NCBI GenBank assembly: GCA_003170115.1
Contig: PMZS01000282.1
Coordinates: forward strand, 1 to 32,820
DNA: 32,820 bases
From: Spirochaetaceae bacterium
GTDB taxonomy: Bacteria > Spirochaetota > Spirochaetia > SZUA-6 > Fen-1364
Reading direction: 5' to 3'
Shown: positions 15,381-26,658 of the stretch, piece by piece
Numbering within the stretch: the first letter of the stretch is position 1
Layout of the letters: each line of letters opens with the position of its first letter
Position numbers and translations under genes: made by a program
The notes under the pieces: model-generated
What the model was told of the DNA's origin: nothing
The model's database searches: none
The model's input: only the letters and a program-made list of their open reading frames with translations

Positions 15381-16403
15381 GTGACATCCTGGAGATCCCT
15401 GAGTCGCACCAAGATCGTGTGGCCCCTCATTGCCCTGGGGGCTCTCCTGCTCTTGAACCTGTTCTTCACGCCTCACTTTTTCCGCCTGGAGATCAAGCAA
15501 GGGCACCTGTACGGCAACCTGATCGATATTCTGAAGAATGTCGCCCCGATCATGCTGCTGTCCATCGGCATGACGCTGGTCATCGCGACGCACGGAATCG
15601 ATATTTCCGTCGGTTCCGTCGTGGCGGTATCTGCCGGTGCCGTCGCGATTCTCATAGGGGGTGACCTCGCCGGGCACCCGAAGTACCCCATCGCCGTGGC
15701 GATGATCGCGGCGTTGCTGGTGTGCACCGCCGCGGGCATGTGGAACGGGATGCTGGTATCACGGGTCCGCATGCAGCCCATCATCGCGACACTGATCCTT
15801 TTCGTCGCGGGCCGCGGCATCGCGATGGTGTTCACGAATGCAATGGTCATCTGGCTCTACGCAAAACCGTTTGCGATCCTGGGCCAGGGATATGTGCTGG
15901 GCATCCCCTTCTCGATCTACATAGTGGCATTCGTGCTCCTCTTGACTTTCATTTTCACCAGAAGGACCGCGGTCGGGATGTTCATCGAGGCGGTGGGTAT
16001 CAACCCGACGGCGGCCCGGTTCTCCGGAATCAACGCAAAGAATATCCTCTTCTGGGTCTACACGTTCAGCGGGCTTTGCGCGGGTATTTCCGGGCTGATC
16101 GTGTGTTCCACCGTCATGAGCGCGGACGGGAACAACGCGGGGAACCTGTACGAGCTGGACGCCATCCTGGCCGTCGTGCTGGGCGGCACCTCTCTGAACG
16201 GCGGCAAGTTTTACCTGTTCGGGAGCATCGTCGGCGCCTTGATCATCCAGACCCTCACCACGAGCATCTACGCGATCGGCATTCCGGCCGACGTTTCCCC
16301 GGTCGTAAAGGCGTTTGTCGTGTGGGCCGTCTGCCTGATGCAGTCCGAGAGGTTCAGGACCAGGATCGTACGGGTGTTCGTCAGAAAGGGGTTGTCGGCA
16401 TGA
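15381..16403 (+). CDS. ytfT: Sugar ABC transporter permease, YtfT-like
   Basis: GHLYGNLIDIL, GIDISVGS, QPIIATLILFVAGRGIA, ADGNNAG, ELDAILAVVLGGTSL; multiple TM segments. Confidence 0.88.
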   Translation: MTSWRSLSRTKIVWPLIALGALLLLNLFFTPHFFRLEIKQGHLYGNLIDILKNVAPIMLLSIGMTLVIATHGIDISVGSVVAVSAGAVAILIGGDLAGHPKYPIAVAMIAALLVCTAAGMWNGMLVSRVRMQPIIATLILFVAGRGIAMVFTNAMVIWLYAKPFAILGQGYVLGIPFSIYIVAFVLLLTFIFTRRTAVGMFIEAVGINPTAARFSGINAKNILFWVYTFSGLCAGISGLIVCSTVMSADGNNAGNLYELDAILAVVLGGTSLNGGKFYLFGSIVGALIIQTLTTSIYAIGIPADVSPVVKAFVVWAVCLMQSERFRTRIVRVFVRKGLSA

Positions 16404-23076: not shown

Positions 23077-23162
23077 GTCTTTCTCCTCGGGATGAATATA
23101 CATGAGGCAGGGACGCGAATGCCACCTCCGCCGCGGTTCCCCGCGGCTGCGGTGGCCGCCCA

Positions 23163-23191
23163 TTGCCAATACGGGCCAATTGCTCTATCAT
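23163..23191 (+). promoter_or_regulatory. sigma70-type promoter for the DUF151 gene
   Basis: TTGCCA, 17-nt spacer, TATCAT, 20 nt upstream of ATG 23212. Confidence 0.6.
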
Positions 23192-23211
23192 TGAAGCCGA
23201 GAGTATTGAAG

Positions 23212-23823
23212 ATGCTGGTCCCCGCCGAGGTCTGGACAGTGGCAAAAGCCGAACAGGGCAACGCAGTTCTCGTCCGGCCGCTCGGCCTGGATGTGGCGGT
23301 TCCCATATTCATCGCTCCGCTGGAGGCGCAATCTATCCTGATCGGCCTGGGCAGCGTGAAGATGCCCCGCCCGCTCACCCACGACCTTTTCATCTCCGTC
23401 CTGGAAAGTCTCGAGTCTTCCGTGAATCGCGTGGAGATCACCTCCCTCAAGGACAGCACGTACTACGCAAAGCTCATCCTGGAGTCGGCAGGTTCGGAGA
23501 TCGCCGTGGATGCGCGTCCGTCAGATTGCCTTGCGCTCGCGGTCCGGGTGAAATGTCCGATCTACATCGACGAGGCCGTCGTGGACGAAGCGGGGATCTC
23601 GGTGAAGATGGTGGAGGAAAAGAACAGGGAGCTGAAGCAGTCCGATGTCGCCCACCAGGTCGTGGAAGAGAGTGGGACTCCGCAGATGTCCGATACCCCG
23701 ACACTTCCCTCGGAATCCGAGATGGGCAATCTCAAAAAGCTCCTGGACAGCGCGATAGAGGAAGAGAACTACGAGGAAGCGGCGCGGATCCGGGACAGGA
23801 TCAGGGATCTGGAAAACACCTGA
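23212..23823 (+). CDS. Bifunctional nuclease (DUF151/DNase-RNase) family protein with C-terminal UVR motif
   Basis: VPIFIAPLEA, PRPLTHDL, DARPSDCLALAVR; C-terminal UVR motif LDSAIEEENYEEAARIRDRI. Confidence 0.9.
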   Translation: MLVPAEVWTVAKAEQGNAVLVRPLGLDVAVPIFIAPLEAQSILIGLGSVKMPRPLTHDLFISVLESLESSVNRVEITSLKDSTYYAKLILESAGSEIAVDARPSDCLALAVRVKCPIYIDEAVVDEAGISVKMVEEKNRELKQSDVAHQVVEESGTPQMSDTPTLPSESEMGNLKKLLDSAIEEENYEEAARIRDRIRDLENT

Positions 23824-24656: not shown

Positions 24657-25613
24657 ATGGGTAAGAGAAAGGTTTTCATCGCTGATACGCTGGCAACTGA
24701 AGGGATCGAGGAGTTCGCGTCGTTCCCCGATCTGGAGCTCGTCGTGAAGACAGGGCTGTCCCCGGAGAAGCTCATCTCCGAGCTGGGGGACGCTGTCGGC
24801 CTGGTCGTGCGCTCTGCCACACAGGCCACGCGGGAGGTCATTGCGTCGGGCACCGCGCTGAAGGTGATCGGGCGCGCCGGGGCAGGCGTGGACAACATCG
24901 ATGTGAAGGCGGCTTCAGAACGCGGCATCGTGGTCCTCAACACCCCGGGGGCAAACGCGGAAGGAGCGGGGGAGCTCGCCGTGGCAATGATGTTCGCCCT
25001 CGCGCGGGACCTTGCGCGCGCGGATGCGACGATGAAAGCCGGAAAGTGGGACAAGAAGAGCTTCACCGGCTGCGAGCTTCGCGGAAAGACCCTCGGCCTT
25101 GTCGGAATAGGCAATGTGGGCAGCGTCGTGGCCCGGTGCGCGGTGGGGATCGGCATGAAGGTCATCGCCTGCGATCCGTTCGTCGCCCCGGAAAAAGCCG
25201 CGGCCCTCGGACTGCGCCTTACGGATTTCGAGGAGGTCATCCGGACCTCGGATTTCGTCTCCCTGCATTCACCCCGGACGGAGCAGACAAAGGGGCTTTT
25301 CAACGCCCCGACCTTCGCGAAGATGAAGAAGGGCGTGTTCCTCGTGAACTGCGCGCGCGGGGGCATCGTGGTGGAGAAGGACCTCATTGCCGCCCTGGAC
25401 AACGGCATCGTGCGCGGCGCGGGAGTCGATGTGTTCGACAAGGAGCCGCCGGAGGATTGGGCGCTCGCGAAGCACGCCCGTGTCATCGCCTCTCCGCACA
25501 TCGGGGCTGCAACGGCCGAGGCGCAGGTCAACGTGTCGGTCATGATCGCGCGCCAGATCGGCGCGTACCTCACCCGGGGCGAGATTGTCAACGCGGTCAA
25601 GGCAGGCGCCTGA
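24657..25613 (+). CDS. serA: D-3-phosphoglycerate dehydrogenase-like D-2-hydroxyacid dehydrogenase, short form without ACT domain
   Basis: VVRSAT, IGRAGAGVDNID, GLVGIGNVG NAD motif, VNCARGG, DVFDKEP, catalytic SPHIGAATAEAQ; 318 aa. Confidence 0.8.
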   Translation: MGKRKVFIADTLATEGIEEFASFPDLELVVKTGLSPEKLISELGDAVGLVVRSATQATREVIASGTALKVIGRAGAGVDNIDVKAASERGIVVLNTPGANAEGAGELAVAMMFALARDLARADATMKAGKWDKKSFTGCELRGKTLGLVGIGNVGSVVARCAVGIGMKVIACDPFVAPEKAAALGLRLTDFEEVIRTSDFVSLHSPRTEQTKGLFNAPTFAKMKKGVFLVNCARGGIVVEKDLIAALDNGIVRGAGVDVFDKEPPEDWALAKHARVIASPHIGAATAEAQVNVSVMIARQIGAYLTRGEIVNAVKAGA

Positions 25614-25641
25614 GGAGGGCCGCCGAACGGCCGCGTGACCC

Positions 25642-25650
25642 GGGCGCGGC
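25642..25650 (+). repeat. Left copy of 9-bp direct repeat (putative target-site duplication)
   Basis: GGGCGCGGC, identical to 25831-25839. Confidence 0.7.
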
Positions 25651-25830
25651 GGGTGCGAATTTATTTTGTTGGTAGTGCGCTTGACCGCAGGAAGGCGCCG
25701 GCTCATATTTCCACGCAAAAGCGCGAAGAATGCCAGGCCCAGCGCCGTTTTCCGTCGAAGGATGCCATATCTCGAATGTCAGGCCGGCGCCTTCCTGCGC
25801 TGTGCCTACCAACATTTTGAAAGTGCTCCC
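25651..25830. mobile_element. 180-bp non-autonomous IS derivative (MITE-like)
   Basis: In-register imperfect terminal IRs starting GGG (17/25 identical, including TGTTGGTAG). Perfect 17-bp subterminal IR (25686-25702 / 25783-25799). Flanked by 9-bp direct repeats; no transposase. Confidence 0.7.
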
Positions 25831-25839
25831 GGGCGCGGC
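25831..25839 (+). repeat. Right copy of 9-bp direct repeat (putative target-site duplication)
   Basis: GGGCGCGGC, identical to 25642-25650. Confidence 0.7.
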
Positions 25840-25846
25840 CCCGTTC

Positions 25847-25875
25847 TTGTCGAAGTCTCCACGGGGGGATACACT
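25847..25875 (+). promoter_or_regulatory. sigma70-type promoter for the UVR-motif gene
   Basis: TTGTCG, 17-nt spacer, TACACT; GGGAG RBS and ATG 25894 follow. Confidence 0.6.
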
Positions 25876-25893
25876 GAAGGCGGGAGCGGGACG

Positions 25894-26658
25894 ATGAGCG
25901 CAGATATCACGGACATCCTGCGGGAGTGGGAGTTCGACTCGGACAACCAGATCCGCATCATACAGGCCGAGGACGGGCGCCAGGTTCTCCAGGTGCGCCA
26001 GCCCATGGGCATCGAGCAGTACGAGCTGGACGGCCGACCGGACGGCAAGAAGCCGTTCGGCCGGGAGTCCGCGCTGGAGGAGTTCCAGGCGCGCCTGGAA
26101 AGCTACCGCACGGCGCACGGCGGCGAGGAAGGGTTTGCCCTCAGCCACGAGGACTTTGCCGCCCTGCAGGGCGAGGGAGTGCTCTTCTATTTCCGCTACC
26201 TCGTGCTGTTCCAGATCGGCGATTTCATCCGCACCGCGCGGGACACCGAGCACAACCTGAATCTCTTCGCGCTGGTGGAGAGGTTCATCGACAGCGACGA
26301 TGACCGCAAGGAGCTTCTTCAGTACAAGCCCTACGTCGTGCGGATGAACGCCATCGCGCGCGCCATGATCTCGCTTCACAAGGAGATGAAGAGCGCGGCG
26401 GAGGACATCCTTTCCAGCGCGATCTCGGCGATCGAGGACATGCACGACATCGACACCCCCGCCTTCCAGTTCGAACGGGTGAGATCACTGAACTATCTCA
26501 AAGCGACGCTGAAGCAGATCCACGAGAAAAAGGGATCTGCCGCCGACTCGCTGAAGGTCGAGCTGCAAAGCGCGATCGACGACGAGGACTACGAGCGCGC
26601 CGCGGCGCTGCGGGACCGGATCCAGGAGCTGGACGTGAAGGAGCCGCAGGAAGAGTAG
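25894..26658 (+). CDS. Uncharacterised protein with C-terminal UvrB/UvrC (UVR) motif
   Basis: MSADITDILREW...LQVRQPMGIEQYELDGRPDG; C-terminal LQSAIDDEDYERAAALRDRI. No helicase or nuclease motifs. Confidence 0.85.
   Translation: MSADITDILREWEFDSDNQIRIIQAEDGRQVLQVRQPMGIEQYELDGRPDGKKPFGRESALEEFQARLESYRTAHGGEEGFALSHEDFAALQGEGVLFYFRYLVLFQIGDFIRTARDTEHNLNLFALVERFIDSDDDRKELLQYKPYVVRMNAIARAMISLHKEMKSAAEDILSSAISAIEDMHDIDTPAFQFERVRSLNYLKATLKQIHEKKGSAADSLKVELQSAIDDEDYERAAALRDRIQELDVKEPQEE

Follow-up and report, generated by a model that had tools for sequence, protein, structure and literature searches.

A 180-bp MITE with ISKra4-type ends placed 16 nt upstream of a promoter in a peat Spirochaetota genome

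Results and Discussion

A 180-bp element lies between a dehydrogenase gene and a conserved promoter

We examined a stretch of 32,820 nucleotides (the whole of which we call the window; GenBank assembly GCA_003170115.1, contig PMZS01000282.1, forward strand) from the genome of a Spirochaetaceae bacterium (G000), a 4.08-Mb assembly of 405 contigs that is 91.7% complete. At the locus considered here, an ORF with dehydrogenase domains is followed by a gene whose product ends in a UVR motif, and between the two lies an element without any gene of its own (Table 1). The dehydrogenase ORF stops 29 nt before the left copy of a 9-bp duplication that flanks this element on both sides. Another gene nearby (23092-23820) also ends in a UVR motif and carries a bifunctional nuclease domain in addition.

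The terminal inverted repeats of the element are identical at 17 of 25 positions when the left end is set against the reverse complement of the right, a match reached by 5 of 200,000 random 180-mers from the same genome. Farther in lie two 17-nt subterminal arms that are 100% complementary, and the 9 nt on either side of the element are identical. Its right end is separated by 16 nt (25831-25846) from TTGTCG, the -35 hexamer of a promoter that precedes the UVR-motif gene. A preliminary description of this DNA had claimed ends in register at 17/25, a perfect 17-bp subterminal inverted repeat, a perfect 9-bp flanking duplication and a right end at 25830 placed 16 bp from TTGTCG-17-TACACT; reading the window by coordinates returned the same counts and spacing throughout. 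The G+C content of the element is 56%, against 62% for its genome. Shorter than ~500 bp, lacking a transposase gene, and bounded by terminal inverted repeats and a duplication, the element has the generic properties of a MITE.

Table 1. Features at the MITE locus, in coordinates of the window.
Feature	Position	Strand	Details
Upstream ORF, D-isomer 2-hydroxyacid dehydrogenase domains in last 310 codons	23955..25613	+	Pfam PF02826, PF00389
Left copy of 9-bp target-site duplication	25642..25650		Identical to 25831-25839
180-bp MITE	25651..25830	+ (orientation of parent IS, left to right end)	Full copies elsewhere; no Rfam match
Left terminal inverted repeat, IRL type	25651..25675	+	17/25 with right end; left-end form common to same-genus ISKra4 elements
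Sigma-70-like promoter motif inside MITE, TTGACC-17-CATATT (predicted)	25681..25709	+	Points at downstream gene
Left arm of perfect 17-bp subterminal inverted repeat	25686..25702		Complementary to right arm, also across subfamilies
Right arm of 17-bp subterminal inverted repeat	25783..25799		Complementary to left arm
Right terminal inverted repeat, IRR type, terminal C	25806..25830	+	Promoter-facing end; kept in every copy
Right copy of 9-bp target-site duplication	25831..25839		Identical to 25642-25650
Host promoter	25847..25875	+	-35 TTGTCG 25847-25852, 17-nt spacer, -10 TACACT 25870-25875; kept in 9/9 aligned relatives
Downstream gene, 254 aa, C-terminal UvrB/UvrC (UVR) motif	25894..26658	+	Pfam PF02151, 28.5 bits

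The dehydrogenase and UVR-motif genes are adjacent in 19 of the 20 other genomes of the genus, and none of these 19 syntenic genomes has a match to the MITE between the flanks. We aligned the nine better-scoring of the 19 loci (leaving out L047, L049 and L051-L058); all nine lack the MITE and keep the promoter hexamers together with their spacing. Because the hexamers are kept in every aligned relative while the DNA further upstream varies, we take them to be a real, conserved promoter; conservation of the UVR-motif gene among the relatives begins at its ATG. The preliminary description had predicted an empty site in related strains, and the MITE is indeed absent from all nine aligned relatives, but none of them carries the exact sequence foreseen, since the upstream part has diverged. 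Contigs of runs X10, X11, X15 and X16 on 25400-26100 contain no joint that skips the MITE; contigs drop rare variants, so that this result is uninformative on absence. In two relatives (L042 from G016 and L043 from G001), the spacer that separates the dehydrogenase gene from the conserved promoter contains short tandem repeats of ~22 nt.

The MITE recurs at unrelated loci within a single genus

Matches to the MITE were found in 4 of 61 related genomes (the window's own included), all belonging to one of the 24 genera represented, and within that genus 3 of the 20 other genomes carry copies, at other loci. The window's own genome has a second full copy, 93% identical (G000:C21:4628-4807), and a solo right end of 41 nt (G000:C199:2643-2683). 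One full copy, 88% identical, lies on contig C20 of G013, while the copy in G010 is truncated by a contig end; a metagenome contig of the G010-type locus (L124) carries a copy that is 96% identical over 186 nt. G016 has two full copies of a sister subfamily, 179 bp in length and 68-69% identical, as well as several MITE ends, each exactly 127 nt away from the end of a contig, as is typical where a repeat breaks a short-read assembly. Scanning with a right-end pattern gave 10 matching public metagenome contigs, six of them with full copies from four distinct loci (one being the C21 locus of the window's genome), and 10 matches in species-representative genomes, where related records are titled Spirochaetia or Spirochaetota MAGs. 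Copies occur in peat metagenome contigs. A pattern match in an Actinomycetota MAG (L140) was rejected as fortuitous, since no element accompanies it.

Alignment of eight full copies separates two subfamilies, five copies being of the window type and three of the G016 type. All eight are nearly invariant over the outer ~25 nt at the left end and the outer ~35 nt at the right end, and in the subterminal arms the differences between subfamilies fall at matching positions of both arms, so that the arms are still complementary. The window copy and the copies of G013, the G010/L124 locus and L127 each have a perfect 9-bp duplication of their own, in keeping with the earlier expectation that further copies would carry different duplications. 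Four of the eight aligned full copies (G000:C21, L125 and the two from G016) lack a duplication; the G016 pair may be assembly chimeras between repeat copies.

Because it recurs, the MITE is more than a chance palindrome. The 180-bp form stands with the same interior at no fewer than five unrelated loci, at 85-96% identity, and this indicates that the short form itself has spread. The preliminary description had named as incompatible with its reading a single, syntenically conserved copy with covarying stems or an Rfam hit and with no empty allele; the MITE is multi-copy, has no Rfam hit and shows no syntenic conservation. The MITE is mobile, being multi-copy and present in some and absent from other close relatives.

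Four solo right ends (C199, L026, L128 and L132) were considered as ends of a common longer element; we rejected this because only 30-52 nt are common to them and the upstream DNA is unrelated. Each of the four starts near the inner arm of the subterminal repeat, and that of L132 closely follows a large serine-recombinase-like ORF. To the left of the C21 copy, an AT-rich flank and the DNA beyond it (L002 1681-2300) match no other genome of the genus, so the MITE there sits at a synteny break; the same junction is also present in an independent metagenome contig (L129).

Right ends of the MITE and of related insertion sequences lie 16 nt from -35 hexamers

We then collected the junctions of the MITE and scored the adjoining DNA for -35-like hexamers. 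With duplicate records counted once, and with L132 (no flank) and L140 (spurious) dropped, the set comprises 17 right and 10 left junctions, all distinct. TTG occurs at offset 16 in 6 of the 17 right junctions (binomial p = 1.2e-8, at a genome TTG frequency of 1.0%) and in none of the 10 left junctions. When the window copy is excluded, the count is 5 of 16 (~5e-7, by hand calculation). The distance noted at the window copy is thus shared by other copies, as the preliminary description had anticipated. The remaining 11 right junctions have TTGAC at offset 8 (three), TTGAC at 22-23 (three) or neither (five). The offset-8 junctions (L022, L127 and L128) form a minor class with a strong TTGAC; in L127 the 9-bp duplication overlaps this hexamer. 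In L126, an 8-nt duplication of the element's own right tip restores the 16-nt distance.

The same distance marks the full-length insertion sequences (ISs) whose ends resemble those of the MITE and which are described below. For the ISs we used 35 full-length copies from seven genomes and took their boundaries from comparisons among the copies of each genome. Outward from the right junction, TTG is found at offset 16 in 19 of the 35, as against 0-3 at any other offset between 0 and 44, and a 5/6 match to TTGACA stands at offset 16 in 14. At the left junctions TTG is found at offset 16 in 5 of 35. In one full G008 copy (contig C35; L030 1373-1500), 16 nt separate the left end from the -35 of a tRNA-Thr promoter.

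One orthologous promoter has been struck twice independently, by the right end of the MITE in the window's genome (G000:C21:4628-4807, L002) and by the left end of a full-length IS in G016 (contig C279, L060); both insertions lie 16 nt from the same TTGACA, and the promoter is kept, without insertion, in four other relatives. At three MITE sites of G016, the promoter is conserved and empty in the window's genome.

A promoter-like motif inside the MITE

In a consensus scan of 25400-26100, the motif inside the MITE was the only promoter-like site, with 9 of 12 matches where 0.1 such sites were expected in shuffles. It is kept in the five window-type copies (one of them with a single change in the first hexamer) and degenerate in the three G016-type copies. 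From an RNA library (run X16), a 247-nt contig covers 25797-26043 and bridges the right end of the MITE and the start of the downstream gene. This contig is compatible with transcription from the MITE into the gene, with the qualification that such libraries can hold DNA and that the contig shows neither start nor strand.

These observations allow an extension of the MITE reading, in which co-option has turned the element into a mobile promoter or a regulatory cassette and each insertion adds an upstream promoter. Being the sole promoter-like site of the region, conserved throughout the window-type copies, and made co-directional with the targeted promoter by the fixed orientation of the element, the motif lends itself to such a role, and the bridging contig from run X16 agrees with it. 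The degenerate motif of the three G016-type copies argues against such a role, the motif may instead be the former promoter of the parent's transposase, and the RNA-library contig could derive from DNA and gives no start or strand. We regard the extension as tentative and, on balance, rather unlikely.

Candidate partner insertion sequences point to a probable ISKra4 origin of the MITE

A pattern generalising both ends of the MITE found three sites in G008, all of them copies of a 1491-bp IS with 9-bp duplications and a single 452-aa ORF. The ORF product matches Pfam UPF0236 and scores 203.4 bits against the NCBIfam ISKra4 model (cut-off 205) and 87.4 bits against the ISLre2 model (cut-off 200). 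Seven further transposases, two from the same genus (one of them from G016, the genome richest in the MITE) and five from closed genomes of the order, score 206.5-230.5 bits against the ISKra4 model, all above the cut-off; across all eight partner transposases, the ISLre2 model gives 43-91 bits. Transposase matches occur in 34 of 92 genomes of the order, and in the window's own genome (91.7% complete) a protein search and the family model gave 0 matches to an ISKra4 transposase. Perfect 9-bp duplications flank 28 of the 35 full-length IS copies, and four more copies have 8-bp repeats by eye. Two IS copies on one contig (L099 and L106, G065:C4) have ~310 nt of identical left flank, which indicates that they were inserted into or beside another repeated element.

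The scores of these transposases point to ISKra4, which is sister to ISLre2/TnGBS, as the parent family. The preliminary description had seen a Mutator-like, promoter-targeting element, and this holds; its suggestion of the ISLre2/TnGBS group has to be replaced, since the partner transposases score as ISKra4. The ISs of the same genus have left and right ends of the same two types as the MITE: counted by eye, the right end of the MITE matches that of the G016 IS at 21 of 25 positions, and its left end matches that of the G008 IS at 19 of 25. When two MITE copies were compared by BLAST with 20 IS-bearing loci, no IS proved to share the interior of the MITE, the similarity extending over the last 24-30 nt only. 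The transposase-bearing parent with the same ends that had been predicted has its nearest counterparts in same-genus ISs with matching ends, but as the likeness is confined to ends of ~25 nt, the exact parent was not found.

The ISKra4 group was defined within the prokaryotic Mutator-like transposases as p-MULT 4 by Guerillot et al. (2014; PMC3942029); its inverted repeats measure 18-39 bp and have a terminal C, and its direct repeats measure 8-9 bp. In the same paper, predicted sigma-A promoters peak 16 nt from the right end of ISLre2/TnGBS elements, a similar but weaker signal is seen on either side of 13 ISKra4-group ISs, and the transposase is proposed to read the RNA polymerase initiation complex, with the asymmetry of the ends setting orientation (PMC3942029). 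The MITE has the ends characteristic of p-MULT 4 (inverted repeats, a terminal C and a 9-bp duplication). The group's further hallmark, a sigma-A promoter 13-17 nt from the junction at more than 20% of sites, is seen at 6 of the 17 MITE right junctions, scored by us as a match to TTG or TTGACA and in PMC3942029 by the promoter predictor PPP.

Likenesses and differences can be set out against the two groups. ISKra4-group ISs and the MITE have in common ends that start with G and finish with C, a 9-bp duplication and a sigma-A-type -35 at 16 nt, whereas the ISs are 1.4-1.7 kb long with a transposase and the MITE is 180 bp long without one. The MITE junctions at this distance are all right-end-to-promoter (6 versus 0), whereas the 13 published ISKra4 ISs show both orientations (PMC3942029), and the hosts of the MITE, Spirochaetia/Spirochaetota, belong to a phylum outside the list given in that paper. 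ISLre2 elements and the conjugative TnGBS elements (p-MULT 3) resemble the MITE in inserting upstream of -35 boxes, at a distance of 15-17 nt, with the right end on the promoter side; they differ in that the partner transposases score 43-91 bits against their cut-off of 200 and that the family is described mainly in Firmicutes (PMC3942029).

Taken together, we put at about 0.9 the probability that 25651-25830 is a MITE without coding capacity that has retained nothing of an ISKra4-family IS (p-MULT 4) but its left-type and right-type ends. Points that count against this reading are the interior not shared with any IS, the agreement of the ends at no more than 19-21 of 25 positions, the 11 right junctions without TTG at offset 16, the four full copies without a duplication and the lack of an empty-site joint among the contigs of the four runs. 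The alternative that fares best against this assignment is a MITE derived from some other family that makes 8-9-bp duplications (IS256 or another Mutator-like group), for which the ISKra4-like ends and the promoter distance would be coincidental. Only ~25 nt per end resemble ISKra4 elements, and 8-9-bp repeats are common to all p-MULT families (PMC3942029), both of which would suit such an origin. The asymmetry of left and right ends, however, matches that of same-genus ISKra4 elements, the offset-16 signal of the MITE (6/17, p = 1.2e-8) mirrors that of the ISKra4 copies, and IS256 insertion is reported to be random (PMC3942029); judged by this comparison with the ISKra4 elements, we consider another family very improbable.

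MITEs usually originate by internal deletion, and the element might accordingly have formed in place, when a full-length IS lost its interior, and never have been mobile as a short element. The recurrence of the same 180-bp form at five or more unrelated loci, together with the 179-bp sister subfamily, leaves this scarcely credible. Least probable of all, to the point of being negligible, is a native, immobile structured RNA, terminator or regulatory hairpin of the intergenic region: the MITE does fold into one long hairpin on either strand (-108.2 kcal/mol on the + strand, z = -3.55) and its paired arms change together between subfamilies, but the hairpin is expected of any element with long inverted ends, co-changing arms are expected of two binding sites of one transposase, a permissive E-value scan of 25400-26100 against Rfam gave a best E of 0.56 (top five at 11.8-18 bits against gathering thresholds of 40-82), a terminator scan found no terminator-like site, none of the nine aligned relatives has the element at this locus, and copies with 9-bp duplications of their own stand at unrelated loci.

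A minimal derivative that keeps the promoter-upstream habit

We see in the element a new MITE family from peat Spirochaetota, most probably of the ISKra4 group, with the published habit of its parents of inserting 16 nt upstream of promoters. The preliminary reading of a non-autonomous, promoter-targeting element, possibly of a new MITE family, agrees with its multiple copies, its 16-nt register and the lack of a transposase of its own. Promoter targeting by the ISKra4 group was already published in 2014 (PMC3942029), in a paper where the word MITE has 0 occurrences. A literature search outside ISfinder found, in the texts that it covered, no description of a short (MITE-type) derivative of the ISKra4, ISLre2 or TnGBS families.

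We propose that an ISKra4 transposase supplied in trans would bind both ends of the MITE and cut the target with a 9-bp stagger, and that the site would be chosen by reading the promoter or the promoter-bound RNA polymerase/sigma factor, as in the model for TnGBS, ISLre2 and ISKra4. The difference between the two ends would fix orientation, and the MITE would thereby bring its own promoter-like motif to a position ~165 nt upstream, in the same reading direction. Because the core promoter and the short leader are left intact, the insertion is probably near-neutral.

Promoter homing, as in TnGBS, ISLre2 and ISKra4, places these transposases among the few in bacteria that read a functional landmark and not a sequence. 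As the 180-bp MITE keeps both the 16-nt register and the orientation, its two ends alone, with the enzyme in trans, would carry the needed information, and the MITE offers a minimal substrate for tests of the targeting mechanism. It also provides a practical marker for annotation, each copy indicating by its right end where a promoter is likely to lie in the genomes of uncultured peat Spirochaetota. A familiar counterpart is provided by the Correia elements of Neisseria, small palindromic, non-coding intergenic repeats with promoter-like motifs and presence/absence polymorphism. Correia elements have short fixed target sequences and, to our knowledge, no fixed promoter distance; the MITE, by contrast, is placed by promoter geometry.

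Candidate excision scars

At the G010/L124 locus, the MITE copy is bounded by a 9-bp duplication, and a TTGACA stands 16 nt away. The orthologous site in the window's genome (G000:C307, ~15,750-15,790, minus strand, L144/L145; corresponding to the reverse complement of L124 6567-6746) lacks the MITE and has both 9-nt copies in tandem. Each of the two copies is identical to the duplication of the occupied allele at 8 of 9 positions, the second starts 16 nt from the same -35, and the right flank is 91% identical to the occupied allele over 500-600 nt. In the more distant G016 (L147), a single 9-nt copy stands at the orthologous site, 16 nt from the same -35. On the simplest reading, the MITE was inserted in a common ancestor and exactly the MITE was then lost at C307.

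A second candidate lies at C56:37504-37521 (minus strand), where a perfect tandem 9-mer has its second copy starting 16 nt upstream of a TTGACG; the orthologous site in G010 has one copy of the 9-mer, and no occupied allele is known. A third candidate, C244, was rejected because G009 has the same length there.

Tandem 9-mers could also arise from an aborted insertion, in which the staggered cut is filled in and religated. A genome-wide scan of 333 perfect tandem 9-mers showed no enrichment of a following -35-like hexamer at offset 16, with 3-4 cases there and 0-5 at other offsets. The window's own genome (91.7% complete) gave no match to Ku (Pfam PF02735), which leaves a Ku-based route of resealing without support. 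Moreover, circular intermediates of the superfamily carry off flank sequence and would not predict a scar of this kind, according to PMC3942029. Overall, we consider the scar reading possible but less than probable.

A broader proposal is that the family cycles into and out of promoters: transposition in trans would place the MITE 16 nt upstream in one orientation, with its motif directed into the target gene, and excision would leave both 9-bp copies behind. We think such cycling unlikely, more so than either the scar reading or a regulatory role for the internal motif. If it is true, promoter-upstream regions carry heritable 9-bp scars and movable upstream promoters, and if the scar by itself is real, it bears on the question of cut-and-paste transposition by Mutator-like elements in bacteria.

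Eukaryotic non-autonomous Mutator-like elements (Mu1-type elements and MULE derivatives) belong to the same transposase superfamily and make 9-bp duplications; their short forms are moved in trans, and their excision leaves a footprint. They differ from the MITE in their long terminal repeats and in having no known -35 targeting. The cases here that resemble a MULE-type footprint are a strong one at C307 and a moderate one at C56.
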